Assembly: GCF_011745625.1 (NCBI RefSeq)
Contig: NW_027191477.1
Span: forward strand, 1-64,000
Length of the DNA: 64,000 bases
From: Cladosporium halotolerans
Taxonomy: Eukaryota
Reading direction: 5' to 3'
Notes under the pieces: generated by a model
The model's input: the letters and a program-made list of their open reading frames with translations, nothing else
Databases searched by the model: none
Told to the model about the DNA's origin: nothing
Translations under genes and position numbers: made by a program
Shown here: positions 4,483 through 25,932 of the stretch, one piece after another
Layout: the number at the start of each line of letters is the position of its first letter
Numbering within the stretch: the first letter of the stretch is position 1

Positions 4483-6183
4483 CTATTGACGGAACCCGGG
4501 GTGTGGACCGGTGTTTGTGAACAAGCCAGGCGGACCTCCCGAGCCCCGGGGACCTGGCTGCTCAGAAGGGACTTGTCCTGCTGGTCTGCGCTCTGGACTC
4601 GCTGCTGGCCGGCTTGGTGAGTTTGACGGCGATCTAGACCGTCCTCCGGATGGAGATCGAGCTGGTGGTGGGCTGGACGATGTCGACCTTGCTGATGGCC
4701 TGGCTGGTGAGTCTCTGGGCGACCTTACAGGCGATCTTCGGGAGGGACGGGCAGGAGAATCATCACCGGGTCTCAGTGTCGGTCTTGGTGCTGGCGGGCT
4801 AGCAGATCGAACAGGCGAGGTCGCCGCTGATCTGGCTGATGACTTCCCAGTGGACTTGGTCTGTGGTGCAGCTGGGGTCTTCGGTGGCGAAGTACCTCGC
4901 GGCCTTGCAGGTGATCTCTCGCGTGGCGCGTCTCGAGGTGCACTGGGCGGTCCTTCGCTGGGTCTCTCCCGCGGCTTGTCTACTTGCCTTGGCCTGTCAG
5001 GGATGGTTGCAACCCTTCCGTCTTGCTCTCCAGGCTGACGCGGTCCATCTCTGGGCCGTTCGTGGACGCAAGGTCGATCCTCGATCTCGGCTTTTTCCTT
5101 CTCAAACTTTCGCTTCTGCTCCTCAGCCACCTTCTGAAGGTGCTTGTATTCAACCTCAGTGCGAATCCTATCCTTTTGCTCTTCAACAGCATTCTTGATT
5201 TTCTCTGCGAAATGCTTCTCTAAGTTCTTCAGCTGTTGCTTGTGATCATCTCTGGTTTTCTCAAGGGTCTTGGAGAAAGCGCTCTTCTTGGCCTTCTCGT
5301 CGCTGATTGTCTCGCGCAATTGCTTCGCTTCACCCTCCATCTGGTCCTTGTTGGGTCCTTCCTGGACGTCTGGGTAATTGCGTTCTTGATCCTGCCTTGC
5401 TTCCTCGTACATTTGCTCCAAACGATCCCGCTCGGCGTACGGATTGGGCCTTGTCCCAGGCGCCCAATCAATATAGTCAATCTCAGCAAAAGTCCTCTCT
5501 GTATCTTCGATCGCTCTGACGACCTCACGATATTGGTCTCTTGCGCGGCGAAAGCGAATCGGCATGCCCTGTCCATTGAGCCAAGCCAGAATGCCAGCCA
5601 AGACAGTGTTAATCGCACCCAAGGTCGTGAGGACGACACTAGAGGATTGCTGGTACGCAGAAAGACCGGTCAAGGCTGCGGCGATAAGAATCTGCAACAG
5701 ATAGAGGAAAGAAATGACGTAGTTCGACATGCCGTACAAGACGCGGTTCCTGAGATCCTGGCTGAGAGTACGATCGTACAAGCCTCGGTTGCGCCAACGC
5801 CTTGCAGCCGCTTTGGTTGGCACAAAGATGTCGTGCATTGGACTTGCAGGCTTTGCGCCTTGGTCTTCCGGCCATAGCAAGCCACCGCCGGGCCTCAAGA
5901 AATGAATGCCAACGAGATTCTGGAAGGTTTCCAGTTCTGACCGCTCCTCTTTTCTAGGCGGTGGGGCATAGCTTCGCTTTTGCTTCGAAGGTCGCCCTCT
6001 CCACTTGTCCCACACATCTTTGAGTTCAGGCTCTCTCGGTTGTCGAAGCTCTGATGGGATGTTGGAAGGCCTGGAGGATGAGCTGTCGCGAACAAGCTTG
6101 GCCGCTGCTGGCGTCTCCAGAGGTTTTGATACATCGTCAAGGCCAGCCTCAAGGGCCGCAGGGTCGGTGTTGGAAGCTTGCAT
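4483..6183 (-). CDS. Fungal SLATT (SMODS/SLOG-associated 2TM) domain protein with coiled coil and Ser/Pro/Arg-rich tail
   Basis: 566-aa ORF. Two TM helices, LYLLQILIAAALTGLSA and LTTLGAINTVLAGILAWLNGQGMPIR, resemble the SLATT_fungal pattern. These are followed by a charged coiled coil and a low-complexity SP/RS region. Confidence 0.7.
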   Translation of the reverse strand: MQASNTDPAALEAGLDDVSKPLETPAAAKLVRDSSSSRPSNIPSELRQPREPELKDVWDKWRGRPSKQKRSYAPPPRKEERSELETFQNLVGIHFLRPGGGLLWPEDQGAKPASPMHDIFVPTKAAARRWRNRGLYDRTLSQDLRNRVLYGMSNYVISFLYLLQILIAAALTGLSAYQQSSSVVLTTLGAINTVLAGILAWLNGQGMPIRFRRARDQYREVVRAIEDTERTFAEIDYIDWAPGTRPNPYAERDRLEQMYEEARQDQERNYPDVQEGPNKDQMEGEAKQLRETISDEKAKKSAFSKTLEKTRDDHKQQLKNLEKHFAEKIKNAVEEQKDRIRTEVEYKHLQKVAEEQKRKFEKEKAEIEDRPCVHERPRDGPRQPGEQDGRVATIPDRPRQVDKPRERPSEGPPSAPRDAPRERSPARPRGTSPPKTPAAPQTKSTGKSSARSAATSPVRSASPPAPRPTLRPGDDSPARPSRRSPVRSPRDSPARPSARSTSSSPPPARSPSGGRSRSPSNSPSRPAASPERRPAGQVPSEQPGPRGSGGPPGLFTNTGPHPGFRQ

Positions 6184-8256
6184 GGCGGATTGGCAAAACA
6201 GCGCCGGGGCACTTCGAGAAGAGCGGCTGCACAGGGTGCGAACACGCAGCAGGGCAGGACCTCATGATTTATGGTCGCTGCGACAGCAACGCAACTAAAC
6301 GTTAGTGTCACCGGCAGACGAGCTCATGCAAAAGAAACCCGCCATCACTGCCAGAACGTTGCGACTATTGCTGGCTAAAAGGATCGGCGGCGGCGCGCTT
6401 TGCTCCGATAGTGATGTGATTGAACAGCGATGTGCATGTCCAAAGACGCTCAACTTTCAAGCAGACTAAGAGCGTAGTGGCTGGTTGCTTGGCTGCTATA
6501 TGGACGACAACGGTAAGTTGCTCGTGTCGAGTTGTACCCATGCGCCAGGAGTGGAAGTCGTCCTGGCTCAGGGCTATCATGCGGATTCTTGCAGGCGGTC
6601 GGAGAACCCCAGCAAGACTTTCTCCAGGATCTACAGTTAATTTACTGTAATGCGAAAACACACACGCTGTGCCCTGCGCCAAAGCGCAGCACCAAGTGGA
6701 CCGTGAATTTCGCGAAAACTGGAGACTTTTGGGAATGGCGGCAATGCTCGGTGTGCGTCATACGCGCGGCGGGCTCTCATTGTTGCAAGCAAAGTGTGCG
6801 ATCGCAAATGGCGGTTCCCATTGCCTTTGACGCACTGGCTAGAGGAAGATGATGTCGCTAGTGTGGCGGGATAACATCTGAATACAGGTGCGCACTTTGG
6901 AGCGAAAAGAAGGTTAGAGGAGCTGTTTTCCCGGCCCGCCGCCGCGCGCCGATTGCCGAAGAACCGTCGGCGCGTCTCAAAAGTCTCACCAGCGTCGATT
7001 TCGCGTTCGGCAGCTCAGCCGCAGCAGCTCCTGTCCAGATGCTGCGCGCTGCTTCGGTAGGTATTGGCCAAGTCTCCGAAATCTCCGGGTTGATTGGTGT
7101 GAACCCTGTTCAATAATATGTAATAATCCAATGAATAGCATCTCTTCAGGCGCCATGCCAATTCGCGTCACTTTACCGCCTATAGTCTTACTGTCCCGTT
7201 CTAGGAACACATGAGTAGCAACGCTGGACCTTGACTGAACGACAAAAAAAAAACCGCGCTCGTACACATTACAATCTCTGCGTAACGCACCACGAGATGG
7301 AGTCGGAAGGGAGCGCTCAGTCGCAGTTTGTCAGAAATGTGACCAACGAATGGATCCGTCGTATACACAGCTTTATTAGTGCTTTATTAGTTAGATGCTC
7401 CATCGCGCCGCAGGTCTTTGAGAGGACTAACGTCGTTCGTGTTCTGTACGCACTAGCAACATCGTGTTCACGAGATGCGAGACACGGATTGAGATTCCGA
7501 TCAAGACTGCGTCATCCGTTTCCCAGAGTAAATCTAGAGAAATTAGAGGTACAAAGATGGAGTTGGTATGGCAATGAGGCCGGCAGGTAGGGCTGCCGCA
7601 AGTGCTCCCATGCGGCAGCTGGCGCGCAGAATTTCAACCTGCTCCGGGCGCATCGCAAGCGCGGCTGCGCAGAAAAAGCACGCTCGAGACGCCGTCTGAA
7701 ACGTCGTATAGCGGGATGTCATATTATCATCCTCGCAGACTCAAAAACCCGCGCTACTTCCTAGCGCCAAACCAATGTTTTGTCGTACCTCGTGCATGCC
7801 TGGCGTGGACTCTTATGCTTCGCCTACAGCCGTTTATTGACGCTTCACGGGTTGCCCCCATACGGGACTCCTTGCGAAAGCTGCCCTCTGCACCGCAACG
7901 CTCCTGTGCCCGAGTCCCCAACGAGAAGCCACGTCCGCCTAACACAAAAGCTTCCGCAATAGATCGCCTTCCGTCTCGCACTCCTCAACAACTATGGTCG
8001 GCTTGCTCTCTTTACCCGAAGAGCTTCTCACCGTGATCTACGTATTAGCCACGATGCATTGTCAAACTCAGTGGAGGCCTGTAAGTCAGTACCAACATAT
8101 GTAACTGCAACTTGCCGTCGCTACCTCCGAATCCACCGCGGACATATTCCTGGCTGTTATCCGTAGCTCTGCACTTCGAATGCTCAATTCAAATTTGCTG
8201 GATAGAACATCAATCATGAGCTCACGTAGGTATCCTATCCTCTATATAGCCATTTC

Positions 8257-11993: not shown

Positions 11994-12984
11994 TTATGCC
12001 AAGAAATCGCCCGATGTCTCCTTCAGGATCAGTTGATACTCAGGGTCAAACTGACGATACATAACTTCTGGAGAACCAGTGCCATTCTTCGTATAAGCAG
12101 CCTCCTCATCGCCGACGAACGTCTTCTCTAAGCCCGTCGATGACCCAATCGAATGCGGAGCGACCGCAGCTTCTGTCAGCAGTTGGGTGTGGCAAGCTCT
12201 CTCCAAAGCAATGAAGAATGCTGCCGCTTCAGCGACTGTCCCGCCACATGTCAGCAATCCATGGTTCTGCATGATGAGGTTCTTGCGCGAAGATCCCAAA
12301 GCTTCAGCGACCCGCTTCCCTTCTTCTTTTGCGAAGACGACGCCACCAAAGTTTCCATAAATGGCCAGATCATTGTAGAACATGCAAGAATCTTCGAGCT
12401 TGTCAGAAGCCAATCTTTGCTGAGCAATGATGCACTTACCCTGATTGAGCATGTCGATGCCCCGACCGAAATTGCTCCAAGCCCTGCCATATGGGCTGTG
12501 TACGTGGCAAGCTGCGTTGAGATCAGGTCTCGCACGATGAATTGCTGCATGGATTATGAATCCCGCCGTGTTGACAGCCATATCTGCCCCGCCGATTCGG
12601 CGCCCTTCTTCATCAACGTGGACCATATCTGATACTCGCAAGAGGCCGAAATGGACACCATAAGGATTGATCCAGAATGTGTCCGGATCAATGGGATCTA
12701 GGCGGTGTCAGACATTAAGGGCAATAGGCATGTTTGGCACTTGCAAGAACATCGACGCACTTACCTCGTAGGCTTATATGCCCGCTACCGCCATCGGCAA
12801 AGCCTAGTTTTGAGAAGATACGAAACGCCCCCGCCATTTGCTCCAACTGCCAGCGTCTTTGAGCATCTTTGGAACTTGGCCACGGGATCCGGAATGATGC
12901 TTGTGTGGCTGACTGTTCATTGTCGATTTTTGTATCTTGCACGACTTCCATGTAGTTGGATGCGATGAGAGTTGTAGTGGCCAT
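11994..12984 (-). CDS. Class II aldolase/adducin-head domain protein; 3 exons
   Basis: GHISLRDP, FWINPYGVHF, IHAAIHRARPD, HVHSPYG and QNHG metal-binding His motifs; introns 12698-12764 and 12392-12439. Confidence 0.88.
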
Positions 12985-13108
12985 GACGCCCGATCCGTTG
13001 TGTAAGGCTGATTGATGGTGGTGCGTCTTTGCTGTCTTCGTTGCTCGAGAGCAACAGCTCGGTTCGATAGACTGACTTCAGCAGTCCGAGGCTGTCAACA
13101 TTCCCGTT

Positions 13109-13165
13109 CGGCGGAAGCCGTGAAACAAGATAGCAAGCTAGTTATGCCTCCTCGGGTTATGCCGA
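13109..13165. promoter_or_regulatory. Two CGG-N6-CCG Zn2Cys6 sites in the aldolase/HglS divergent promoter
   Basis: CGGCGGAAGCCG at 13109-13120 and TCGGGTTATGCCGA at 13152-13165. Confidence 0.65.
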
Positions 13166-13288
13166 TTCAAACTGGCTGGCGGCTGACAGGGCGAATCCCG
13201 AGCCCAGCACAAGCCGACCAACCGGCTACATCCGAAGTTCAGAACAGAGCACGCATGTAGACTACATGACAAGGCAAGCGCATGTCTT

Positions 13289-14842
13289 ATGCATAGTGCT
13301 TCGATTGAATTGCAACATCATCTGTTTACTCACGTTTACCCCGAACCAATACACGACCCCAAGCCGAACAATCTTCCAATGGCGTGCATACTATCAAACG
13401 AAACCACCAGCATGGGGACCGCCACGCAACCTCCAGCTGCTTTCATCAGTGCAGATCATGTTCGAACGATGTTTGCACATGCCATGTCAGCAATGTATAG
13501 ACGAGAAGTTCCTCTTTACGGGGATCTCGTCCAAATTGTTCAACAGACGAACTCGAGCAGCACGTCTGATCTACAGGCGCACGACACTTTACAAAGACTC
13601 TCCCTTGAGCGGCACGGTGCTATTCGACTGGGCACTGCTGAAGAACTTTGCACCATCAAGCGCTTGTTTCGGGTAATGGGTATGCATGCTGTTGGATATT
13701 ACGATCTATCAGTAGCCGGCTTGCCCATGCATGCCACGTGTTTCCGACCGATATGCGCGAAGTCTCTGGAGGCGAATCCATTCCGTATATTCACGACGTT
13801 GTTACGTCCTGAGATGCTTCAATCAGACGAATCCAAATCGATAGCAGAGGACTTGCTACGACATCGCAAGATTTTCACACCGGCTTTGTCACAGCTCCTG
13901 GACGCTGCGGAAGAGCAAGACGGCCGACTGAGCTTAGACCAGGTCGAGGTGCTCATCCCGGAGGCATTGTCAACTTTCAGTTGGCAGCCAGTGGCAGCTG
14001 CCAGCAGAGCACAGTATATGAAGTTATGCAACGAACATCCCATCCTGGCCGACATCGCCTGCTTTCGTAGCGCTCACATCAACCATCTGACACCACGTGT
14101 CCTGGACATCGATGCTGCCAAAACGGCCATGGAACTCGCTGAGATGCCAGTCAAAGCTTCAATCGAAGGTCCACCCAAAAGGAAATGGCCCATTTTGCTG
14201 CGGCAGACGAGCTTTCTAGCTCTGGAGGAACAAATAAGATTCAGAATCTGCGAACAGCAGCAACCTGAAGGCAACTTTGCAACTGGCTCGCACAAAGCAC
14301 GATTCGGCGAGATCGAAGAGCGGGGCGCAGCTGTGACCCCCAAAGGCCGCCAGCTTTACGATTTCCTCCTCAAAGAAGCGAGCTCTCGGTCTGCCAATGC
14401 CTCTTTCGCAGAAAAGGATCTGATCTTCTCAGAAGTCTTTCTCAAATTCCCGGATGTGTGGTCAGACATGCAAAGGGAAGGACTTGTCTATTGCGTTTAT
14501 AAACGCACCAGCAAAGCTCTTACAGAGGCCACCAAGTTATCAGCAGTGTCAAACACATCGAATACGCTAGCGGAACAATTGATAAGCCAAGGTTTAGTCC
14601 AGACATACCCGATAACCTATGAGGATTTCCTGCCCTTTTCAGCAGCCGGGATCTTCCAGTCAAATCTGCAAACAGCTCAAAAGGATGAACAACCGTCAAA
14701 CTTCAAAGCCATTTCAGATCAAGAAGGCTTTGAACAGTCTCTAGGGGGACCACTAATCAATTCAGATGATCTTTACCTGCAGATCGAGAATGACAGTCTT
14801 CGTGACTGCGTAGAGAGTCTGGGGATCAAATGCAGTTTCTAG
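13289..14842 (+). CDS. hglS: 2-oxoadipate dioxygenase/decarboxylase (HglS/YdcJ, DUF1338-type); true start may be 13379 or 13412
   Basis: Intronless ORF with family motifs SAMYRREVPLYG, ERHGAIRLG, GYYDLS, HATCFRP, NPFRIFTTLLR, HINHLTPRVLDID, IEGPP, ILLRQTSF, HKARFGEIEERG and PITYEDFLPFSAAGIFQSNL. Confidence 0.88.
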   Translation: MHSASIELQHHLFTHVYPEPIHDPKPNNLPMACILSNETTSMGTATQPPAAFISADHVRTMFAHAMSAMYRREVPLYGDLVQIVQQTNSSSTSDLQAHDTLQRLSLERHGAIRLGTAEELCTIKRLFRVMGMHAVGYYDLSVAGLPMHATCFRPICAKSLEANPFRIFTTLLRPEMLQSDESKSIAEDLLRHRKIFTPALSQLLDAAEEQDGRLSLDQVEVLIPEALSTFSWQPVAAASRAQYMKLCNEHPILADIACFRSAHINHLTPRVLDIDAAKTAMELAEMPVKASIEGPPKRKWPILLRQTSFLALEEQIRFRICEQQQPEGNFATGSHKARFGEIEERGAAVTPKGRQLYDFLLKEASSRSANASFAEKDLIFSEVFLKFPDVWSDMQREGLVYCVYKRTSKALTEATKLSAVSNTSNTLAEQLISQGLVQTYPITYEDFLPFSAAGIFQSNLQTAQKDEQPSNFKAISDQEGFEQSLGGPLINSDDLYLQIENDSLRDCVESLGIKCSF

Positions 14843-15036
14843 TTTCCTTTCCGAGATCCGTCGATTATGATTAGCTTAGCTCTAGAATTTCTTCACCCAG
14901 CTAGACCTCGATGCAAACAAGACTGATTGGATACCGGAGCTGTATCTGAAATGAACATAAGACTGTAGCGACGTCTGGGGCCGAGGGGTAGACGAAATGG
15001 GTTTTGCTAGATATATCCACACGTTTATTGAATCGT

Positions 15037-15873
15037 TCAAGATCGCCAAGAAGAGGGGACACGCTTAACCAGTCCTCCGTAGAACCAATTTACCATCGAG
15101 TACACATCGTAGACTTGGACCGACCTTCCCATCGACCTCTGGATGGCTTCAGCAAATGGAGGCATTTGCGTGCATTCCAACACAAGAACCGACATTGTTG
15201 GCCACTGTTGGATTAGTTGCTGAGCTGTAGTGACAAGCTCTGCCTCGATTGCTTTGTGATCGTACCCAGCATTTTGCTGGACTAAACGATGAAGGTGACC
15301 ACCAGTTGGGGCGCCAGCAATGTGTACTCGGTCCAAAAGTGCCGGATGAACTCCTGCGCTCTCAACATGCGCTAGCTGCAAGCGCTGAGAATCGTACGTC
15401 AGAATACCGAGTGTCTGGGAAGGCGCCATTATTGCCATTATGGATGGAATCTGCACAAGAGCAGAAGTGGCAATGGGGATTGGGAGGCGAGCGGCGAGTC
15501 TGAGAACGATATCAGTCCACCGATTACGAAGCACTTTGCCCGCCACGTACCTGCTCTGAGCCAATGCCAAAAAACCGCAACTAGTGATCAGCCCAACACA
15601 TCCTTTGTCGGCAAGCGTTTTTCCAGCATCGACAAAACGGTCTAGAAAAGCATCATCGTAATCTGAGCTCGTAACGACTTGAGACTCGGCAGTGCCAACA
15701 GCGAGCTCGCGTATGAGCGGAAAGTTCCAGGTCTCGTTCGTAAATGGGTCTCCAGGTGGTCTAGTGAAGAAGCACTCAATGGCGATAAACCCAAGAGGTG
15801 GTAACGAGGGATCAACTTGGTTCGAAGATTGCGGCTTTGCGGCATCTGCTTTTTTCGAAAGGACGTCTGACAT
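15037..15873 (-). CDS. Asp/Glu/hydantoin racemase superfamily protein; 2 exons
   Basis: RPPGDP..TWNFPL, two Cys motifs ITSCGFLA and VLECTQMPPF, and PIATSALVQ; in-frame intron 15500-15550. Confidence 0.8.
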   Translation of the reverse strand: MSDVLSKKADAAKPQSSNQVDPSLPPLGFIAIECFFTRPPGDPFTNETWNFPLIRELAVGTAESQVVTSSDYDDAFLDRFVDAGKTLADKGCVGLITSCGFLALAQSRYVAGKVLRNRWTDIVLRLAARLPIPIATSALVQIPSIMAIMAPSQTLGILTYDSQRLQLAHVESAGVHPALLDRVHIAGAPTGGHLHRLVQQNAGYDHKAIEAELVTTAQQLIQQWPTMSVLVLECTQMPPFAEAIQRSMGRSVQVYDVYSMVNWFYGGLVKRVPSSWRS

Positions 15874-16070
15874 GATGTTCTGTGTTCGGCCCAAGCTCCA
15901 GGTGGTATAATGCTCGATGAGACTGAGACATAGCTCATCTCAAAGACCACTTTGTCAGACGTCAAAGCTTTGCTATCCGGCGTCTAGTTTGTCATGCCTC
16001 TCAATCATGTACTAACGTAAACTCTATCGGTCTGCTATCAACCCCGCAAGTGGGTCTGTAGCAGGCTTGA

Positions 16071-16082
16071 CGGAGGAATCCG
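16071..16082. promoter_or_regulatory. CGG-N6-CCG site in the racemase/dehydrogenase divergent promoter
   Basis: ACGGAGGAATCCGT at 16070-16083. Confidence 0.65.
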
Positions 16083-16354
16083 TGGACCCTGCTCACTCGA
16101 ATGAGCTTCGCCCGGAAGAACGCGATACTGATCCACGCGCCCAGTAGAGCGGGGCCGAGGTCGGTTCATCACGGTCAACATTTACCAGTGTTTGCTTTTC
16201 GATGTAATATTTGCTACCTAGAGAAAGAATTCGGATTCTGTATCCTCAACGCGACCTTTCAACTCACATCAATTTCGTGCTGCAATTACTTGCACGGCCC
16301 GGACATCAACCGGACATCAAACAACTCATTCTCCACCATTGAACCAACACAGAA

Positions 16355-17440
16355 ATGACCGTAAGCCAGAGCGCACACCGGAAGCCACGCGTGGTCTCAC
16401 TCGGGCGGCCTGCATTCGTCGGCAAAGAATATCTCGACGAATTCTCAAAATCGTTCAACTTCTCAATACTGGAAGCCAAACATCGAGCTGAGACCAAACA
16501 GCTTCTACCATTGGACATTGAGAAAAATGGCCCCATTGATGCATTCGTGATTCGAATGGGTACGCCGCCATTTGAGCCTTTCGACGAAGATTTGCTCGGT
16601 GCTCTAACACCAGAATGCCAAATCATCACGTCTGCAAGTGCTGGTTTCAACGAGTTCGATGTGGAATGGATGACCCGGTCTGGGGTGTACTTCTGCAACA
16701 CTGTTGATGCCGTCGCCGAAGCTACGGCCGATATGGCAATCTTCTTGACGTTGGCAACTCTGCGCAACACTTGCAACGCGGAGAAAAGCCTCAAAAATGG
16801 TACTTGGAGGGGCGGTCTTGCACCAACTAGAGACCCGTCAAACCTGACCTTGGGCATTGTTGGAATGGGAGCCATCGGAAAAGTTTGTCAAATCCCAGTC
16901 CCGGAGCCGGTGCATTCGCTGACCTCAACGCAGTACCTTGCGAAAAAGGCCCTCGCGTTCAACATGAAGATTAAATACTACAACCGCAACCAACTCAGCC
17001 CCAAGCTGGAAGAAAGATACGAGGCTTCATACTGCTCCACCCTTCAGGAGTTGCTTGCCTGCTCCGACGTTGTCTCGATAAACTGCCCATACAACAAAGA
17101 CACCGAGGGATTGATTGGGCAGTCCGAATTTGAGGCAATGAAGGATGGAGCCTACTTCATCAACACCGCGCGCGGACCTATCGTTCAAGAAGAGGCTTTG
17201 AAGGCGGCGTTGGAGTCTGGCAAGGTCACAAGAGCAGGCTTGGATGTCTTCTGCAACGAGCCGAACATCGATCCGTGGTTTTTGGAGAGCGATGCATGCA
17301 TTGTGCAGCCTCACTTGGGTGGTCTGACGGACGCGGCCTTCCAACGTGCCGAAAGGGAATGCTTTGAGAATATCCGCGCGCTATTCACAATTGGCGTGCC
17401 GAACTCGCCCGTGAATGACTTATCCAGTCGTAGGAAGTAG
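16355..17440 (+). CDS. D-isomer-specific 2-hydroxyacid dehydrogenase; 2 exons
   Basis: GIVGMGAIG Rossmann motif, INTARG, LDVFCNEP and PHLGG (Arg/Glu/His catalytic set); in-frame intron 16883-16933. Confidence 0.9.
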   Translation: MTVSQSAHRKPRVVSLGRPAFVGKEYLDEFSKSFNFSILEAKHRAETKQLLPLDIEKNGPIDAFVIRMGTPPFEPFDEDLLGALTPECQIITSASAGFNEFDVEWMTRSGVYFCNTVDAVAEATADMAIFLTLATLRNTCNAEKSLKNGTWRGGLAPTRDPSNLTLGIVGMGAIGKVCQIPVPEPVHSLTSTQYLAKKALAFNMKIKYYNRNQLSPKLEERYEASYCSTLQELLACSDVVSINCPYNKDTEGLIGQSEFEAMKDGAYFINTARGPIVQEEALKAALESGKVTRAGLDVFCNEPNIDPWFLESDACIVQPHLGGLTDAAFQRAERECFENIRALFTIGVPNSPVNDLSSRRK

Positions 17441-17858
17441 TTCCTCTGTCCAATCGAATTCAACGTTTCGTACAACGTGTATACACTGCGTCCTTATCTT
17501 TTCCACTTATGACAATGTCCTCTTTCGTGTTCTGGACGCAGAACCTGTCCAATGCTTGTTGACTTGCGTCTACAAACGCGAGTGAATCTTATCATGCAAC
17601 ACCAGACTACCGCCAGATAGAAGATTGCAGTATAGACATGCGGAAGGATCTTGCTGACACTCGCATTGTATGAAGTATTCGCGTGATGGGACGGGTCTTA
17701 CGACGTAGGAATGCGCTCAAAGGAAAGTCATGCTGGCAACTGCTTGAAACACAGTTATATATCGTGCACTTGAAGTTTATACCAATCAGAAAGAATTAGT
17801 CTCAATCGCACCGCCGACGCTCGAAATTTGCAAGCCTCGATCCTCTCCGGCCATCAGA

Positions 17859-19647
17859 CTACACACTTTTGGCTGGCAGGTTCACAATCTGCTCCGCACT
17901 TTCGATGTCTTGACTGAAGTCTGTCAGCTCGTGGTCTATTCGAAAAGAGTCGGTAGACATACTCATGCTGTCTACCTTCGATGAGGCTGGCGTGTGTTCC
18001 TGCTTTCGAGCGGAAAGCCATGAACCAAGAGCCCTCGAAGATCCTATCCAGCTCCTCGAGGCTGTGTCCCGCGGTCTCCGCACCATGAGGAACACGTAGA
18101 CTAGAGCGATGAAGCACCATCCGGCGAAAAAGATGAAAGCACCCCAGTTGTCCATGCTGGAGAGGATGGAAGGCGTGCCGCGGCTGACTCCGAAGTAGAA
18201 CAGCCAATGGAATGTTTGAGAAAGGGAGGAGCCGAACGAGCGGAGATGGTTGGGCCAGACTTCAGAGCTGAAGACGTACGGTAGGACAAGAAGACCTTAG
18301 ATGCGTCAGTCAAGAGCATATGTCACAGCGGAAGCAGCTTACCGATAGTGTAACCGAAGCCGTGGATGAAGATCATGGCGATAGCGGCCTGACTTGATGA
18401 GTCTGAAACATCTCCTGCGGCTCTGTACTTCAAGAAAACACCGATGTAGATGTCCGAGATCATCTGGATGGTAATGCCGGTGAAAAGACTGCCACGACGT
18501 CCCAATGCGTCGATCAAGAAGAAACTTGCGATAAGGGTGAAGAAGAACTTCGCAAGAGAGTACATGGAGCTGAGAAAGAGTGAGTGTGATTTATCACCGA
18601 CCTCGCCTATGAGGCTCAAGATCGGGATGAAATAGCTCGTGACGCTGTTGGCGCCGGAGAGCTGTGCAAGCCCATACGAGATGCAAGTTTGCATCACGCG
18701 ACGAATGTTTGCTTTGACCGTGAATGTTTCGACAAAACAAGTGCGGGTGGCCTTCCAAGACACAACGTGGGTCATCACTCCAGTTCTAGCGCGTTCTTTT
18801 TCCAGCTCAGAGACGATCTGCTCGAACTCAGACGAGACTCTAGTACTGTCGGCACTCAGCCCTCGAAGGGCGGCCAGGTTCCGCTGTGCTTCTTCGATGC
18901 GCCCAGCACGCACGAGCCATCGAGGGGACTCGTATGCGAAGAAGGTGAGCCCGATGATGAGAGCCAGGTAGATGCATGGAGCGAAAAACACAATCTGATA
19001 CTGCAACTTGCTGGCAGCAATGTGAAGAGAGATTCCGTAAACGCAGATCGTGGATAAGAAAAGACTCAGGAGGAGAACGACGCTGAACCACACTGTGATC
19101 AGCCCTCGAATCTCGGTGGGTGCGATCTCGACAAGGCTGAGAGGGCCAGTGACGGTGTGAGCGCCAATGCCGAGTCCAGAAATGACGCGAGCAATGTATA
19201 GCGCAACGAGCGAGCCATTGCTAAAAGTAGCGATGATCTGACCCACAATCCAGACAGTGGTGTAGAGTCGCATTGACCAAAGGCGGCCGAGGGTGTCGTT
19301 GAGAAAGAAAGATACGAAAGCGCCTATGCCAGCACCGATGTATACGACGGAGATGAAGTTGGCGATTGCTTTTGCATTCGCGCCCGAGCTGATGTCAAAG
19401 GCGTCCGCAAAACCAGGCAGTGAAGGCACAAGCGAAGAAGAGCCTTGGTCCCACGCTGGTAATACAAATCAGCAGCGCGTCCGATGGTTCAAGCACAGGA
19501 GGTCTTACTAAGAGTGACTCCGCACATCGCGTAAATGGACGCGGAAAACAGGAGTGGCCAGTTGCATATCAGCTGGCGCGGAGTGTTGCGGACGGCATCG
19601 ATGTACCGAGCCAATGTCGAGTCTTTGAGAAGGTCTGGGACACCCAT
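17859..19647 (-). CDS. MFS sugar-porter family permease (quinate permease-like) with an apparent 1-nt frameshift after TM12
   Basis: WDQG, DTLGR, EIAPTEIRG, ESPRWL, QLSGANS and IDALGRR motifs over several exons. The ETAGHSLEELDRIF segment is out of frame at about 18080. Confidence 0.85.
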
Positions 19648-19962
19648 GCTGGATGTAGCTCGAGCCGGATGTGGAGATGTATAAGAAGACCGCGACCCCG
19701 AGCACGTGTGGAAAGGCGGAACAACGTTACAGCACGAGTGACCAAGAGCACCGAGGCGGGAGCCGAGGATACATTATAAGTCCATTGAAGGAGACAGCAT
19801 AGCCGTGCAAGATCGGTGGCAGAGTCTGGCCGGGGTTGGTGTGCCATCGGGCGCCGGCATCCCGAGTATCTCGACGGTTGCTACACCGCGCGCGGATGAG
19901 CTTTTCGCTATCGTCGCTACGAGGCCATCCTTGCATGCTTCCGGGGGCGGGGGTAGCGCCAT

Positions 19963-19976
19963 TCGGGGGAATCCGA
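19963..19976. promoter_or_regulatory. TCGG-N6-CCGA site in the MFS/regulator divergent promoter
   Basis: TCGGGGGAATCCGA at 19963-19976. Confidence 0.65.
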
Positions 19977-20347
19977 TATCGCCAAAGGCTGGCGATAGCT
20001 GATAGCAGACAGACCGAGGATGGCGGTGCTTTGGAAGGCGGCGAAGCTCGACGGCGCAGATCACAGACTGGACTGAGATGTGCGCAACGGTCAGATATTG
20101 GGCTGGGCTGCGCGCAGAACTTCCCTTTGGCATTGGGTTGTGTGTCTGCGCAGTCGACGACACTGCCGGGACTGATGGGCGGACAGGCAGAGCGCGGCCA
20201 TGTCTGCTCAGCTGATTCTTGCCTGACTACAGAGCCACCAGCGCGATCATCGCAAGTGCCTCGGCATCCTCAGTGTCCGCAAGCCGTGGCCCTCATGCTC
20301 ACCACATCCCGTCCTCGCCACGCCTTCAACGTCGCGGCACACTCATC

Positions 20348-22703
20348 ATGGGTGACGCTCGCTCTCCGCCGGCCAAACGGTCGCGTGTCGGGGACCGCAC
20401 GACGCTCGCGTGCATAAGGTGTAAGCAGAAGAAGCTTAAGGTCGGTGGTTGTTTTCCTTCAGAAGCCGACGTTGCGCGCTTGACAGGGCTGACGGCGACG
20501 CAAGTGTGATGGCGCCAGTCCAAGGTGTCAGAATTGTGCAAAGAGTGGGCAACAAGGTAGGGCAGCTCGCCGTGGCACTCCGGATCTCCCACCTTTAGCC
20601 AACATCGTGACTGAATCGTCAAGCAGATTGCCTGATCGAGGATCCCGCCACCGGCCTGCAGCGCCCGCGAGACTACATGCAAGCCCTAGAGTCGCGCGTG
20701 GCATACCTCGAGGGTCTCCTTCAAGAAGCGAGACCAGAGATTGCTGCGGACCACATGGGTTCCAATACTCAGCGAGCACTGGCTGGCGGCATCCCGTCGC
20801 CGCGTGAGGCCAACGCTACCGGAATGCTTGCCTCGCCGCCCATGCAAGGAGACTTGCTCGCGCAATCGCAGCTTCCTGGTCCGCGAGATTCTCATATGGA
20901 GCACTCCAGACCTGGAGACACCGCTAGGTCTGATCCAGTGTCCTCGGAAGTTGCTCTCCTGTGCGTCAACGCTTCCGGGCGTGAGCCGCAATACCTCGGT
21001 CATTCGTCCGCGTTGTCATTTGCACATGTTGCGACTCAGGCCATGGGTCTGGAGGATAGCTCTACAAGCCAGAATTTGTGGAGCGGCAGTCAGCCTGGCG
21101 ATAACAGCTCGAGATCCGCTACAGCCCTTGAGCTTAAGCATCCCTCGCCAAACGTTGCTGAAGCACTCTCTCGGGCTTATTTCGAAAACATCCACTTGCA
21201 GTACCCTTTTCTACACCAGCCTACTTTCAATGACTGGCAACAGAAATGCTGGGAAGCTAATCTCAATGGTACCTTGTCTGACGCTGGGCACGTACCACTC
21301 TTCTTCGTAACCATGGTGTACGCCATCGGCTCCATCGTCCTCAGCCACGGGCTTTCCGATGAAGCCAAGGACTTATATACCATGGCCATGCGATATTTCC
21401 CACCAATCCTGAACACTGATACATTAGAATCTGTACAAGCTCTCATTGCTTGTGCAGTCTTCTCGATTCGCTCACCGGTCGGTGCAAGTCTCTGGATGAT
21501 CTCGGGCATGGCTGTCCGCAAGTCCATTGGGCTTGGATACCATCGGAGCTTTACTGCGTTACGAAGGGCTCCTGGTTCTTTGTCAACTGAGATGGCCAAG
21601 AGATGCTTTTGGGTCGCCTACGACATCGACAGAGTAGCATCATTCGTATTGGGTCGACCAACTGCCATCTCCGACCAGGCGATTGACGCTGAGGTATGCG
21701 AAACTTGAAGACTCCCCAAAAGGAAAAACAATTGCCGTCTCCACACCAGTCTGCTGACCTATGCCTGTGTTAGCTTCCACTCGACATCAACGACGATGAC
21801 CTTGCAGACGGACAAGTACCTCGGAATCTCCGATTCCACAGCACTGAGCCGCCGACCACGATGACCGGCGCTATCCACGTGATCAATTTGCGACGCCTCT
21901 GGTCAAAGATCCACGGCTTCCTATATGGGGATTCCGCAGCTTGTCCACGTGGCTTCAATATAGCAGACTCTACGATTTACGATCTAAGGCAGGAACTCGA
22001 AGAATGGCGGGCTTCTACGCCCCCACAGATACAAGTCCAGTCCAGCGGAGCCAAACCGCTCTCTGTGTACACGTCGCGGGAGTGGTTTACGCTGGCGTAC
22101 AATCATTCCATTCTACTCCTCTACCGACCTTTGATCAACGACACTGCGGATCAAGCCATGCAAGCACAATCCCAGCCTGGACTTGTGGACATGGCTTTCG
22201 AAGAATGCTACATGAACGCACAGCAGATGTGCATGACGTATCGCAGTCTCTACCAACAACCGTCCATCCAGTTCACCTGGGGCAGCTTGCACATTCTGTT
22301 CCTCGGCGGAATGACATACCTGTACTGCCTGTGGCGCTCCGCAAAGATCAGGCAGACAGCCAGGCTGAAAGACGTCATGGGCACCTGCATGGCATGCTCG
22401 ATGGTGCTGGTGATCATAGCTGAGAGGTGGAGGATGGCGACAGCGTACCGTGACATGTTCGAGAAGCTGGCCGAGCGCACCATCAACATGCTCGAGCTGG
22501 ACATGTCGCGACGGAAGCAGGCGAGCAGCGGTGCCGAGGCTCCTACATCAGGGTTCGACGGGTTCTCCGACGACGCTTTGCCTTTCGATCAGTGGATACT
22601 GGATCTCGATAATGTTGGCGTGCCGCCCGAAAGCGACTGGCTCGTCCAGGAGCTTCTTGAAGGGGTGCGGAATTTTGAGCCGAACGGCTTTGGTGGACTG
22701 TAG
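20348..22703 (+). CDS. Zn(II)2Cys6 transcription factor with fungal_trans domain, PPR1/UaY-like; 4 exons
   Basis: Spliced CIRCKQKKLKCDGASPRCQNCAKSGQQDC (introns 20441-20504 and 20557-20626), then LIEDPATGLQRPRDYMQALESRV. Middle region has YFENIHLQYPFLH, LGYHR and RCFWVAYDIDR...LGRP. Third intron at about 21694-21773. Confidence 0.9.
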
Positions 22704-23010
22704 CATAGTGTATTTGAAGATTTGCTCCACGAATCTGTATTGGAATCGTTTCGACCTTCATGTTGGCAAGTTCACAAGACGCCCAATCATCCGGAGCGTC
22801 CTGTTACTGTATCCGGCCAAGTCAGTTGAGAATTGCAATTTATCATTTTCTCTCTTCGAGATCACAAGGGTCCGGATGTCGGAACACTTGGCAACCACTC
22901 CGACTACATCCCAAGCAGGGTTATTCCGCATGGTCAACTCCCGGTATTAACACAAAAGCGCGGAGCTTGCGTGCAGCCTTCGGGTTCGCGCGTTGCAGAT
23001 GCGGGGGCGA

Positions 23011-23037
23011 TGGGTTCCTCCGAACCGGAGGAATTCG
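23011..23037. promoter_or_regulatory. Back-to-back CGGAGGAA near-consensus sites upstream of the flavoenzyme
   Basis: Palindrome TTCCTCCG-AAC-CGGAGGAA gives CGGAGGAATTCG (+) and CGGAGGAACCCA (-), each one mismatch from CGG-N6-CCG. Confidence 0.55.
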
Positions 23038-23410
23038 CCGAACCCCTCTTCAGCCCCCTCTGCGATTCCGGCCCACTCTCCTGCTGAACAGATAAGCTTT
23101 CACCTGGTCTTCTGTTTGATAGGCGAGACCGGCGTAAGCCGAGCGCGATGGCAGAATACATGCGAGAGATGATAGTTGCTCTTTTGACCGAACATGTGCT
23201 TCCGGCGAGTTGCATCGGCAATGTAGGCTATCGTGCCGTCTTGCTGTGAGTTACGGTGCAAAGAAGATCATCCTCGGCAGTTCTCCAAACTACAACTTCG
23301 CAGGCCTCACTAGCAAGCATCTGCATTGAGAGCACGGGAAGCGAATCATATTTCCGATTTACCACGGACACTCAACAGCTTCACAGAGCTTTCGAGAACT
23401 GTGATTCGAG

Positions 23411-24913
23411 ATGTCGACGACTGACGAGATCGTTGAAACGCCACCCATGATGAACGAGCCCATCATCATCGTGGGTGCCGGTGTATTTGGGCTCAGCACA
23501 GCAATCCATCTGGCAAAGCGAGGCTACAAGGACGTGACGGTGTACGATCGTCACTCCTACGACGACTCGCAGTTTTCATACTTCAAGGGCGCCGACTCTG
23601 CATCTGCGGACATCAACAAGATCATCCGGTCAGCCTATGGTGGCGTCAGCATCTACCAAGACCTGTCGCTAGAGGCAATTGAAGGCTGGAAAGAGTGGAA
23701 CGAGAGATTGCGCAAAGGCGAAGACTTGCTTTCAGGTCTGAGCAGAGGCGACCAAGTCTTTGTACCCAACGGCAACTTGAGCATGACAGACACGAACGAG
23801 ATCACCGAATTTGACCAAGCCACCATTACTAGCATGGAAGCTGCTGGATATCCTGGAACTCAACTCAACGTCACGGATGCTCGAGACCGGAAGATTGCAG
23901 CCGAGAAAGGCTTCGGCTTGGCCATTGATCCTTTCGGACGGGAGAGAAGAGGCCAGCCAAACACCGCAGTACTAGACACTACTGGCGGTACGGCCGTTGC
24001 GGACAAGGCTTGTCGCTTCGCTCTGCATGAAGCGCGCAGTCTAGGCGTCAACTTTGTTTTGCATCCTTCAAAAGGTGCATTCAAATGCCTCACCTACCAT
24101 TCCAACGCTCGAAGACGGGTGACTGGCATCACCACTAGCGATGGACGGTCGCACCCAGCATGCATGACCATCATGGCATGCGGTGCATGGACACCTTCCC
24201 TCGTCCCCGAAATGGACGGCTTGTGTGAAGCGACAGCGGGCACCGTGGCATTGATCAAGATACCAAGGGAATCACCACTTTGGGATCGCTTCAGCCCCGA
24301 CAACTTCCCGTCATGGCAGTGGAACATGCGGAATGGTTCTGAAGGCGGACTTTACGGATTCGCACGCAATGAAGAGGGTTGGCTGAAGATCGGGTACCGA
24401 GGCCTCAAATACACCAACCCCATCAGCCAGGCGGACAGCATTCAACGCAGCGTGCCCGTGACTCGATGGACACCCGATAGAAAAGGCGGAGAGCGATTGA
24501 CATCGGCCCCTGAGCATGCTTTGAAGGTGATCGAAAGGTTTCTTCAGAATTACTTGCCAGAGCTCGGCGCAGCCGGACTAAAGATCTCGAAAACTCGCAT
24601 CTGCTGGTACAACGACAGCTTCGACAATCATTTGGTAATTGATCGCGTTCCTGAAGTGGGCGGGCTGATGGTAGCTACGGGTGATAGCGGGCACGCGTTC
24701 AAGTACCTTCCCGTCCTCGGGTCATATATTGTCGATGTGATGGAAAGGCGAGGGATAGACAGGGCTTGCATTAGAGCCTGGCAATGGCGTAGTCTTGGAG
24801 TTGAAACTCCGCAAAATGTTTTGATGGAAGGGAGCGCAAGTCCGAGGTCGTTGCAAAAGGTGCCTCTTGTTGCAGAAGAAAATCTTTCTGCGCCTCTGCG
24901 AGCTCGGCTCTGA
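23411..24913 (+). CDS. FAD-dependent amine oxidase (sarcosine / L-pipecolate / fructosyl-amino-acid oxidase family)
   Basis: IIVGAGVFGLSTA, SASADINKIIRSAYG, RICWY (covalent-FAD Cys position) and ATGDSGHAFKYLPVLG; intronless, 500 aa. Confidence 0.88.
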   Translation: MSTTDEIVETPPMMNEPIIIVGAGVFGLSTAIHLAKRGYKDVTVYDRHSYDDSQFSYFKGADSASADINKIIRSAYGGVSIYQDLSLEAIEGWKEWNERLRKGEDLLSGLSRGDQVFVPNGNLSMTDTNEITEFDQATITSMEAAGYPGTQLNVTDARDRKIAAEKGFGLAIDPFGRERRGQPNTAVLDTTGGTAVADKACRFALHEARSLGVNFVLHPSKGAFKCLTYHSNARRRVTGITTSDGRSHPACMTIMACGAWTPSLVPEMDGLCEATAGTVALIKIPRESPLWDRFSPDNFPSWQWNMRNGSEGGLYGFARNEEGWLKIGYRGLKYTNPISQADSIQRSVPVTRWTPDRKGGERLTSAPEHALKVIERFLQNYLPELGAAGLKISKTRICWYNDSFDNHLVIDRVPEVGGLMVATGDSGHAFKYLPVLGSYIVDVMERRGIDRACIRAWQWRSLGVETPQNVLMEGSASPRSLQKVPLVAEENLSAPLRARL

Positions 24914-25485: not shown

Positions 25486-25932
25486 ATGCCTCTCTGGCTA
25501 ATTTACCATCCAACAGGCACTTTCGAGGATGTGGCCTCGAAAGAGTCGTTCGCCAAAGACATCACAAGTGCGTACGTCGGATGGGGTCTGCCAGCGTTCT
25601 ACGTGATCGTGAATTTCATCAAACTTACCGGAACCGACATGTACATCGGCGGACGACCGAACACTGGAAACCCATTCATCCGCCTGCGAGTTGACCACAT
25701 TGCGGTCCGCCTAGACGATGATGATGCTGCATACAACCGTGTCACGGCTAGCATCGACAAGATTCTCAAGCCGCACATCGAGGACAAGGGATACGACTGG
25801 GAGTATCACATCGACGAGACGGAGAGAAGGCTGTGGAAGATCCAGGGCCTTGCACCGCCGCCCTTCAAGAGCGAGGAGGAGAAGGTGTGGATTGAGCAGA
25901 ACAAACCGTCGCCGTGGGAGAATTCGGAGTAG
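25486..25932 (+). CDS. Putative oxalocrotonate tautomerase (cis-CaaD-like, Pro-1 enzyme)
   Basis: 148 aa beginning M-P-LWLIYHP, with ITSAY..GLPAFYV, DHIA and DWEYHIDETERRLWKIQGL.PP. Confidence 0.82.
   Translation: MPLWLIYHPTGTFEDVASKESFAKDITSAYVGWGLPAFYVIVNFIKLTGTDMYIGGRPNTGNPFIRLRVDHIAVRLDDDDAAYNRVTASIDKILKPHIEDKGYDWEYHIDETERRLWKIQGLAPPPFKSEEEKVWIEQNKPSPWENSE

Follow-up and report, generated by a model that had tools for sequence, protein, structure and literature searches.

Gene content of the locus

The stretch of Cladosporium halotolerans DNA analysed here (64 kb, called the window below) contains seven genes that form a compact fungal catabolic cluster with an embedded regulator. From left to right, it begins with a class II aldolase/adducin-like gene (11994-12986, - strand; PF00596, E=2.2e-37), whose protein has the decarboxylases TqaM and NovR among its nearest solved relatives in a PDB search. 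It is followed by an HGLS/DUF1338 gene encoding a homologue of 2-oxoadipate dioxygenase/decarboxylase (13379-14842, + strand; PF07063, E=1.6e-142), which matches PDB 6W1G (E=1.3e-112) and scores 524.4 bits against NF049974, under the cut-off of 550. An Asp/Glu-racemase-superfamily-like gene (15037-15873, - strand) scores under the cut-offs of both PF01177 (24.4 bits, cut-off 31) and NF005679 (195 bits, cut-off 231), and a PDB search with its protein gave no match. Next to it lie a D-isomer-specific 2-hydroxyacid dehydrogenase gene (16355-17440, + strand; PF02826 and PF00389), which has an in-frame intron at 16883-16933 (joint 16882/16934 in RNA run X17), and an MFS sugar-transporter-family gene (17812-19647, 3' end approximate, - strand; PF00083, E=1.7e-49), which has introns near 17914-17962, 18294-18340 and 19454-19508 (joints in the same run). 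The Zn2Cys6 regulator gene (20348-22703, + strand; PF04082, E=2.7e-23) and an FAD-dependent amine oxidase gene of the sarcosine/fructosyl-amine oxidase family (23411-24913, + strand; PF01266; top PDB matches fructosyl amine oxidases, E about 2e-27) complete the set. With an HglS homologue in the cluster, the pathway may be fungal lysine or 2-oxoadipate breakdown.

Four intergenic regions serve these seven genes, an arrangement put forward in the original prediction and borne out by the Pfam assignments. Three are divergent promoters, aldolase-like(-)/HGLS(+) (IG1), racemase-like(-)/dehydrogenase(+) (IG2) and MFS(-)/regulator(+) (IG3), and the fourth separates the 3' end of the regulator gene from the FAD oxidase gene (+).

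A shared motif in the cluster promoters

Recurrent in the cluster promoters is a 12-base word made of CGG, six bases and CCG (CGG-N6-CCG). Each of the three divergent promoters has a single copy of the exact 12-mer CGGnGGAAnCCG, always in + strand orientation, and there is none elsewhere in the 64 kb. The copies lie at 13109-13120 in IG1, reading CGGCGGAAGCCG (270 bp upstream of the HGLS start codon and 123 bp upstream of that of the aldolase-like gene), at 16071-16082 in IG2 (CGGAGGAATCCG; 284 bp upstream of the dehydrogenase start codon, 198 bp for the racemase-like gene) and at 19964-19975 in IG3 (CGGGGGAATCCG, inside TCGGGGGAATCCGA at 19963-19976; 384 bp upstream of the regulator start codon, 317 bp for the MFS gene). 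IG1 carries two more CGG-N6-CCG sites, one without the GGAA core at 13153-13164 (CGGGTTATGCCG, within TCGGGTTATGCCGA at 13152-13165) and one at 13223-13234 (CGGCTACATCCG), and IG2 has a degenerate + strand copy with two mismatches at 16113-16124 (CGGAAGAACGCG), as well as a pair of HGATAR (GATA-factor type) sites on the - strand at 16024-16040, 31-47 bp left of the 16071 site. Upstream of the FAD oxidase gene, two copies of CGGAGGAA face each other (TTCCTCCG-AAC-CGGAGGAA at 23015-23033). These copies (23011-23022, - strand, and 23026-23037, + strand) are each one mismatch from the 12-mer, both miss the second CCG and lie 385-400 bp before the ATG, and a + strand CGG-N6-CCG site one mismatch from the GGAA consensus (CGGCGTAAGCCG, 23130-23141) lies 281 bp before it. 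Overall, the sites are found 123-400 bp from the flanking ATGs. When checked in the sequence, all five sites listed originally proved real and correctly placed; that list had omitted those at 13223, 16113 and 23130.

Could these sites lack a regulatory role, having arisen by chance and been kept through neutral conservation among close relatives? Across the whole window CGG-N6-CCG stays at chance level (15 occurrences versus 18.28 +/- 4.22, and at least 15 in 81 of 100 shuffles), and the consensus was picked after the sites were seen, so that the count of CGGnGGAAnCCG (three in 64 kb against 0.143 expected; at least three in 0/300 shuffles) concerns a word defined from the very sites then counted. 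Against chance stands the concentration of the sites, six of the 15 falling within the cluster's four intergenic regions (2,280 bp in total), where shuffles averaged 0.69 and never exceeded 4 (at least six in 0/2000). Also against it, an unbiased search for 12-mers shared by the four regions returned the same word, with a score of 4 (null 6.48 +/- 0.61) that 0/100 shuffles reached; the corresponding figure was 2/100 for 14-mers, and at 10-mers the search was not significant (94/100).

Specificity of the inverted 6-bp spacing for the cluster promoters is seen both in the window and in two orthologous loci. Six sites of the inverted N6 class lie in the four intergenic regions, where each of the other 63 spacing/orientation classes has 0-3; when the promoters of the window and of both loci are pooled (4,030 bp), N6 reaches 12 and every other class 0-5.

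Conservation in orthologous loci

The orthologous loci (n=2, L001 and L002) come from a single metagenome scan and extend over IG1 and IG2 alone, the L002 contig ending short of the regulator's DNA-binding domain. Both keep the aldolase-HGLS-racemase-dehydrogenase order, with HGLS proteins 70% (L001) and 62% (L002) identical to that of the window, and in L002 the regulator adjoins the aldolase-like gene. Conservation of the motif in orthologues had been named as a test, and of the CGG-N6-CCG sites of these loci, 3/4 in L001 and 3/3 in L002 lie inside the two matching promoters.

Comparison with L001, 47-52% identical to the window in these two promoters overall, shows the motif to be the best-conserved block of both. 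The only 12-nt segments of IG1 with at least 11/12 identities are those over the motif (13108-13124), and those of IG2 are the motif itself (the 16071 site is 12/12 identical in L001, at 4779), the degenerate copy, which lies 42 bp from it, and one segment of the GATA pair, which is partly conserved (11/12 at 16030). The degenerate copy at 16113, 12/12 identical to L001, sits inside a second conserved block (16105-16127). The 13223 site aligns with CGGCTTTTCCCG at 2000 in L001, followed by a common AAGTTC, and at the place of the 13153 site the L001 alignment has no intact CGG-N6-CCG. In L002, the sequence aligned to the 16071 site reads TGGAAGAATCCGTGGACCC, in which one CGG is lost, and a perfect N6 site (CGGACATGTCCG, 5669) aligns with the neighbouring block 16105-16127, which resembles the turnover of sites under constraint. 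Being orthologues of the window's sites, those of L001 are not independent, which is a point for neutral conservation, but no block of these divergent promoters is better conserved than the motif, the L002 sites lie partly at places unaligned with the window's, and we consider an origin by chance very improbable.

Since the GGAA spacer core, present in three of the six exact N6 sites of the window's intergenic regions and in two of the three L001 sites, is found in none of the three sites of the more distant L002, the general consensus is CGG-N6-CCG and not CGGnGGAAtCCG, as had been proposed. Conservation nonetheless outruns the 12-mer, with CCGTGGA shared by the window and L001 and GAATCCGTGGACC by all three species; the spacer nGGAAk and 3' flank CCGTGGA kept in the window's lineage suggest that not only the two CGG triplets matter, but also further contacts or preferences in DNA shape.

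This asymmetry raises another reading, in which the functional unit would be an extended half-site, CGGnGGAA with or without TCCGTGGA, bound by a monomer or an asymmetric dimer, the CCG at N6 being secondary. The element CGGNGGAA alone occurs 15 times, five of them in the cluster's four intergenic regions, versus 8.47 expected (2/100 shuffles), a CCG at N6 is missing from the copies at 23015 and 23026, the spacer is kept in three paralogous sites and two L001 sites, and the three exact sites share their orientation. Precedents exist, as passages of PMC6265462 describe Schizosaccharomyces pombe Pho7 as a monomer binding a 12-nt extended CGG site, CGG then a conserved extension comparable to CGGnGGAA, and passages of PMC10250231 describe half-site binding as common in the family, zinc-cluster factors often binding by CGG half-site density rather than by a strict motif. 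However, N6 sites occur without GGAA in L002 (all three) and without an exact GGAA at 13153, 13223 and 23130 in the window, N6 is singled out among 64 classes in three species, and the regulator, unlike Pho7, which has no dimerising coil, possesses a segment that aligns to the coiled coil of Ppr1. A Pho7-like or half-site mode is therefore unlikely in our view.

The embedded regulator and its linker

The regulator gene has introns at about 20441-20504, 20557-20626 and 21694-21774 (spliced X17 contigs skip 64, 70 and 81 nt), which split the DNA-binding domain across the first three exons, where the six-Cys pattern was read; the Ppr1-type linker and coiled coil begin at 20629. The residues CLIEDPATGLQRPRDYMQALESRVAYLEGLLQE align ungapped with residues 34-66 of Saccharomyces cerevisiae Ppr1 (PDB 1PYI, E=0.044), the sole PDB match of the regulator at E<=10. 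The homologue P0036, whose DNA-binding domain is closely similar by reading (47% identical over the exon-3 query), matches 1PYI over 67 ungapped residues at E=1.5e-11, versus 2.7e-5 for Hap1 (printed alignments spanning the zinc cluster only), 1.3e-4 for Gal4 (matched range reaching residue 82, at a far lower score), 2.3e-3 for Put3, 0.098 for Leu3 and 0.48 for Pho7. The linker signature DPATG..PR(D/N)Y..LE.(R/H)V is kept in 10 of 12 retrieved homologues across Pezizomycotina, and the Ppr1-type linker of the original prediction is upheld. Reece and Ptashne reportedly found in 1993 that the linker sets the spacing. The 6-bp spacing ascribed to Ppr1 and UaY is stated in passages of PMC4832277 and PMC10250231; those of the latter describe Ppr1 as sensitive to spacer length and state the role of the linker loosely.

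Taken together, this makes it probable that a homodimer of the embedded regulator binds the CGG-N6-CCG sites, much as Ppr1 and UaY bind theirs, and switches the cluster on. The two CGG triplets would be read by one zinc cluster each, the 6-bp spacing would be fixed by the Ppr1-like linker and a short coiled coil, and binding would activate the cluster genes, probably in answer to an intermediate of the pathway; a GATA factor may act as co-regulator. Binding, dimerisation and activation by the regulator, with all seven genes as targets, are what we infer from motif and linker; autoregulation is put forward more tentatively.

The sites could also be genuine cis-elements read by a different factor encoded elsewhere, either a Ppr1/UaY-type zinc-cluster protein or a factor recognising GGAATCCGTGGA, with the embedded regulator binding another sequence or acting indirectly. 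Fungal genomes each encode many Zn2Cys6 proteins, and the DNA-binding domain in question is widespread (97 matches in the homologue search), so that the sites may not be specific to any one family member; the conserved block that outruns the 12-mer (CCGTGGA, GAATCCGTGGACC), the second conserved block and the GATA pairs close by fit this alternative too. It is made rather unlikely by the position of the regulator within the cluster, where in L002 it adjoins the aldolase-like gene, by a linker of exactly the type that fits the 6-bp spacing and by the general behaviour of pathway-specific regulators within fungal catabolic clusters, which usually act on neighbouring genes.

Spliced X17 contigs cover the IG1 sites, to about 13247, and another contig (19542-19982) spans the IG3 site; RNA contigs cannot fix transcript ends, but these suggest that the sites may sit in the leaders of the leftward genes (aldolase-like and MFS) and not upstream of them. 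This overlap was counted against regulation by the embedded protein, along with the lack of window-wide enrichment, the definition of the consensus from the counted sites, the GGAA-less L002, the conserved asymmetric spacer, the CCG-less copies at 23011-23037, the half-site-density binding frequent among zinc-cluster factors and the small number of orthologous loci (two).

Relation to known systems

The control proposed for this cluster is a well-supported but ordinary case of pathway control in fungi. The quinate (qa-1F/QutA), proline (PrnA) and ethanol (AlcR) clusters likewise have an embedded activator, divergent promoters sharing sites and a transporter gene beside the regulator; their site architecture and substrates differ from those of the window, and we know of no HglS homologue in them.

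With Ppr1, the regulator shares a Zn2Cys6 cluster, linker and coiled coil that align without gaps, a likeness by alignment. Unlike Ppr1, it has one extra residue in the last loop of its zinc cluster (C-X7-C, by reading), and it is embedded in its probable target cluster, a catabolic one containing HglS, whereas Ppr1 targets pyrimidine synthesis. To our knowledge, the spacer bases are not read in the Ppr1 model, from which the conserved spacer nGGAAk and 3' flank of the window sites depart. Inverted CGG triplets with 6-bp spacing are common to both, according to passages of PMC10250231 and PMC4832277.

Passages of PMC4832277 also make Aspergillus nidulans UaY (purine utilisation) comparable, as a Zn2Cys6 activator from Pezizomycotina that governs a nitrogen-source catabolic regulon and binds a 6-bp-spaced repeat. 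One homologue of our regulator (P0003) is automatically named 'positive regulator of purine utilization', and UaY differs in that its targets are scattered purine genes and not a tight cluster including the regulator. UaY works together with the GATA factor AreA, and GATA sites accompany the window motif. It is much longer than the roughly 720-residue regulator studied here, and the flanks of its consensus, TCGG-6X-CCGA, are present in two of the six window sites.

The cluster and its shared site

The four intergenic regions of a compact gene cluster share a conserved, spacing-specific element, CGG-N6-CCG (inverted CGG triplets with a 6-bp gap, hereafter N6 site), and the zinc-cluster regulator embedded among these genes has a Ppr1-type linker, a pairing that forms the supported core of our reading. 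The window is fungal, as seen from its spliceosomal introns and Zn2Cys6 regulator. A Pfam search of it delimits seven genes spanning ~11994-24913, namely a class II aldolase/adducin-like gene (-), an HGLS/DUF1338 gene (13379-14842, +), an Asp/Glu-racemase-superfamily-like gene (-), a D-2-hydroxyacid dehydrogenase gene (16355-17440, +), an MFS sugar-transporter-family gene (-), a Zn2Cys6 regulator with a Fungal_trans domain (20348-22703, +) and an FAD-dependent amine oxidase gene (23411-24913, +). These gene calls agree with the original prediction that four intergenic regions serve seven genes, since they define three divergent promoters, IG1 (12987-13378), IG2 (15874-16354) and IG3 (19648-20347), and one tandem promoter, IG4 (22704-23410). 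The next gene, a Tautomerase_3 gene (25486-25929), was excluded from the proposed regulon, its upstream region having neither an N6 site nor a GATA site. The flanking genes are unrelated to the cluster: a K+ channel lies to its left, and those to its right include an ABC transporter and an NLR-like gene. The NLR-like gene (33141-37434) combines an NPHP3_N/NACHT-type N-terminus with ankyrin repeats; like a second gene, at 4486-6261, that encodes a fungal SLATT domain, it is of a type typical of fungal non-self recognition loci.

All the sites first listed, at 13109 and 13153 (IG1), 16071 (IG2), 19964 (IG3) and 23011-23037 (IG4), were found in place, together with three absent from that list, CGGCTACATCCG at 13223, CGGCGTAAGCCG at 23130 and the degenerate CGGAAGAACGCG at 16113. 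CGG-N6-CCG shows no window-wide enrichment (15 copies vs 18.28 +/- 4.22, with 81 of 100 shuffles reaching 15), and the signal is the location of the sites, not their total number. The four intergenic regions (2,280 bp) contain six of the 15, a clustering far beyond chance, given that dinucleotide-preserving shuffles of these regions yield a mean of 0.69 sites and a maximum of four (0/2000 reach six). When spacings of 0-15 were scanned in inverted, everted and both direct orientations, all classes but inverted N6 gave 0-3 sites in these regions.

The word CGGnGGAAnCCG occurs in three exact copies in 64 kb, one per divergent promoter (expected 0.143, 0/300 shuffles reach three), a circular count in that the word was defined from the very sites counted. 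Because of this circularity, a pattern-free search was made for the best shared 12-mer in the four regions, which recovered CGGnGGAAnCCG from IG1, IG2 and IG3 with a score of 4 (null 6.48 +/- 0.61, null minimum 5; 0/100 shuffles reach 4). The same search was not significant with 10-mers (94/100 shuffles), and 2/100 shuffles did as well with 14-mers. One-mismatch copies total 11 in the window (4.49 +/- 2.11 expected), three of them within IG4; those outside the cluster, at 3130, 27239, 31955, 42634, 48449, 53387, 58643 and 62654, are near chance level in the shuffle comparison, and the one at 27239 falls within the ABC-transporter reading frame. The sole other close pair of N6 sites within the window, CGGACATGGCCG and CGGTCGAGGCCG (38771-38997, 215 bp apart), is without the GGAA spacer core of some cluster copies and lies in the long region that separates the NLR-like gene from its right-hand neighbour and has no listed ORF of at least 150 aa.

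Conservation in orthologous loci

A metagenome scan with the HGLS protein as query returned 11 loci, of which two are syntenic and were used. The first, L001 (HGLS 70% identical), has the aldolase-like (-), HGLS (+), racemase-like (-) and dehydrogenase (+) genes, and in the second, L002 (HGLS 62% identical), these four genes follow the 3' part of the regulator gene, which adjoins the aldolase-like gene tail to tail. The remaining loci (HGLS 44-53% identical; GC 0.44 or 0.60-0.68) show no cluster synteny except a distant racemase-like match in two of them (L005, L006); they are probably not orthologous and were omitted from all motif counts. The comparison of orthologous promoters thus covers IG1 and IG2.

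The motif was expected to be conserved in orthologues, and N6 sites do lie in the matching promoters of both loci. In L001, CGGAGGAAGCCG stands 270 bp upstream of the HGLS start, a distance identical in the window, CGGCTTTTCCCG aligns with the site at 13223 and the racemase/dehydrogenase promoter contains CGGAGGAATCCG, so that three of the four N6 sites of this locus fall inside the two matching promoters. The same is true of all three in L002, where CGGATACTTCCG and CGGAACCATCCG lie upstream of HGLS and CGGACATGTCCG in the second promoter. Taken together, the promoters of the window, L001 and L002 (4,030 bp) hold 12 inverted N6 sites, against 0-5 for each of the other 63 spacing/orientation classes. 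This conservation is local: promoter identity between window and L001 is 52% for IG1 and 47% for IG2, and 12-nt windows at least 11/12 identical occur in IG1 only over 13108-13124, and in IG2 over 16070-16086, over 16105-16127 (the degenerate copy) and at 16030 (a GATA pair). Chance combined with neutral conservation, a reading to which the unremarkable window-wide count lends itself, is highly improbable beside the promoter clustering and these conserved blocks.

The proposed GGAA consensus fared less uniformly. The L002 counterpart of the IG2 site at 16071 is TGGAAGAATCCGTGGACCC, in which one CGG is missing, and the perfect N6 site of IG2 in L002 falls in the adjoining conserved block, which looks like site turnover under constraint. 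Since the N6 sites of L002 are without the GGAA core, this spacer belongs to the lineage of the window and L001, where it is kept, and is not universal; only the 6-bp inverted spacing is common to all three.

A Ppr1-type regulator

The DNA-binding domain of the regulator is divided among three exons, and spliced contigs of one RNA run (X17) skip 64, 70 and 81 nt at the expected intron places. Exons 1-3 read ACIRCKQKKLK / CDGASPRCQNCAKSGQQ / DC, that is, C-X2-C-X6-C-X6-C-X2-C-X7-C, an arrangement which, read across exons, fits the Zn2Cys6 pattern C-X2-C-X6-C-X5-12-C-X2-C-X6-8-C near the N-terminus. Many homologues of the regulator carry PF00172, and the regulator itself has the PF04082 middle homology domain (82.8 bits vs a cut-off of 23). 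A PDB search with just exon 3, which encodes the last Cys, the linker and the coil, gave a single match at E<=10, yeast PPR1 (1PYI, E=0.044), with CLIEDPATGLQRPRDYMQALESRVAYLEGLLQE aligned ungapped to CVSLDPATGKDVPRSYVFFLEDRLAVMMRVLKE (residues 34-66). The full-length homologue P0036, which has a closely similar DNA-binding domain and is 47% identical over the exon-3 query, matches 1PYI at E=1.5e-11 over 67 ungapped residues, and far more weakly Hap1 (2.7e-5, printed alignments limited to the zinc cluster), Gal4 (1.3e-4), Put3 (2.3e-3) and Leu3 (0.098). The Ppr1-type linker ascribed to the regulator is therefore borne out by ungapped alignments of both proteins.

The regulator belongs to a family of which 97 homologues, ~25-64% identical (mostly 43-51%), were found in several Pezizomycotina classes. 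None of the 97 has an experimental name, the names being automatic and mixed (purine utilisation, acu-15, xylanolytic activator), and DPATG..PR(D/N)Y..LE.(R/H)V is kept in 10 of the 12 members fetched. We found neither the cluster nor the regulator described in the literature searched. In two database gene models (P0068, P0092), both from other classes of ascomycetes, a member of this family is fused with an MFS Sugar_tr domain, suggesting that transporter and regulator genes have stayed neighbours far outside this genome.

Reece and Ptashne are said to have found in 1993 that half-site spacing is set by the linker, and the UaY consensus is TCGG-6X-CCGA. Both Ppr1 and UaY recognise 6-bp-spaced repeats (PMC4832277), and spacer length matters to Ppr1, with linkers influencing specificity (PMC10250231). 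The promoters of this cluster have the same 6-bp inverted CGG spacing, and the linker and coil are Ppr1-like in sequence and length. Whereas Ppr1 and UaY control pyrimidine or purine genes, the neighbours here are neither, according to Pfam. Judged from these sequence features, the embedded regulator would probably bind the N6 sites as a Ppr1-like homodimer and, once bound, activate the cluster. We infer that all seven genes are its targets; autoregulation is a tentative addition, which we regard as possible rather than expected.

Apart from the RNA contigs described below, two features count against the Ppr1-like model or are unexplained by it. One is the asymmetric sequence conserved in the spacer and 3' flank (CGGnGGAAkCCGTGGA), which is not known to be part of the Ppr1 model; the other is that the two facing CGGAGGAA copies of IG4 are without a distal CCG. 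That another factor reads the sites is unlikely beside the agreement between linker type and half-site spacing. Somewhat less likely still is an extended half-site, read in the manner of Pho7 or by a half-site mode, for which there are precedents (PMC6265462; PMC10250231): the IG4 copies lend themselves to it, and the inverted 6-bp spacing common to the three loci points to the Ppr1-like homodimer. Although the regulatory logic itself (a pathway-specific zinc-cluster regulator acting through inverted CGG sites) is already known and will not surprise the specialist, this is a clean case in which zinc-cluster linker type predicts half-site spacing in the promoters of neighbours, and it provides a precise cis-element prediction for an uncharacterised regulator family widespread in filamentous ascomycetes.

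A possible catabolic role

The HGLS protein matches PF07063 over its entire length (475.8 bits, profile positions 1-386 of 386) and P. putida hydroxyglutarate synthase 6W1G at full length (E=1.3e-112, residues 18-483), and scores just below the cut-off of the NCBIfam equivalog NF049974 (524.4 vs 550 bits). P. putida HglS has a metal-binding His-His-Glu triad and a substrate arginine, Arg74 (PMC7286885); in our protein ERHGAIRLGT, which aligns with ERHGAIRVGT of 2RJB, would hold the first His of the triad and the counterpart of Arg74. In PDB searches the nearest structures to the FAD oxidase are fructosyl-amine and sarcosine oxidases, enzymes that oxidise secondary amines, and the aldolase-like protein is close to the decarboxylases TqaM and NovR; no solved relative of the racemase-like protein was found.

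The presence in one cluster of an HglS homologue, a secondary-amine FAD oxidase and a D-2-hydroxyacid dehydrogenase makes it a candidate fungal 2-oxoadipate route. Fungal lysine catabolism is called almost uncharacterised in a passage of PMC7286885, which asks whether HglS homologues of fungi are involved in it. A role of the cluster in lysine, pipecolate or 2-aminoadipate breakdown is a doubtful proposal: lysine-derived compounds (pipecolate, saccharopine, 2-aminoadipate) would be broken down via 2-oxoadipate, from which an HglS-type enzyme would lead to D-2-hydroxyglutarate and 2-oxoglutarate, and the cluster would be switched on by an uncharacterised, Pezizomycotina-wide Ppr1/UaY-type regulator family via CGG-N6-CCG, together with a GATA nitrogen regulator. 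The four promoters (2,280 bp) contain 12 HGATAR sites (13065, 13128, 16024, 16035, 19908, 19993, 20000, 22840, 23090, 23117, 23170 and 23228), three times the window density (1.73 per kb), and the pair at 16024/16035 lies within a block partly conserved in L001. This density would suit a cluster for nitrogen-source catabolism that is governed by a GATA factor and subject to nitrogen-metabolite control, a fit that is only suggestive. Since an HglS homologue and a secondary-amine oxidase are among the cluster genes, the regulator and its site could reveal the inducer and define a fungal 2-oxoadipate pathway. If true, the lysine-route reading would offer a genetic handle on fungal lysine catabolism, and this possible tie to an open question adds somewhat to the value of the finding.

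RNA contigs and strain variation

RNA contigs from X17 run across the IG1 sites (12900-13247) and the IG3 site (19542-19982), extending from the aldolase-like and MFS coding regions, a pattern that points to long 5' leaders or to divergent non-coding transcription; the regulator's own contig begins near 20139. The IG1 and IG3 sites may thus be transcribed as part of the aldolase-like and MFS leaders, although contigs cannot fix transcript ends. RNA depth was discarded as evidence of co-expression, since the runs are contigs, whose depth cannot rank genes. Strain variation was likewise set aside as a test of constraint: of the differences listed for four runs, IG1 has 10, all outside its three sites, a result without weight at ~3.7% divergence.

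In the dehydrogenase leader, a tandem 11-nt duplication at 16300-16321 (CGGACATCAAC/CGGACATCAAA) is single-copy, with 11 nt absent, in three of the four runs and is thus a strain polymorphism. Over 22892-23196, the part of IG4 with the degenerate sites, one contig of another run (X15) is of the same length and diverged, and a second contig has ~8% differences, reflecting either two lineages in the run or a fast-evolving promoter.
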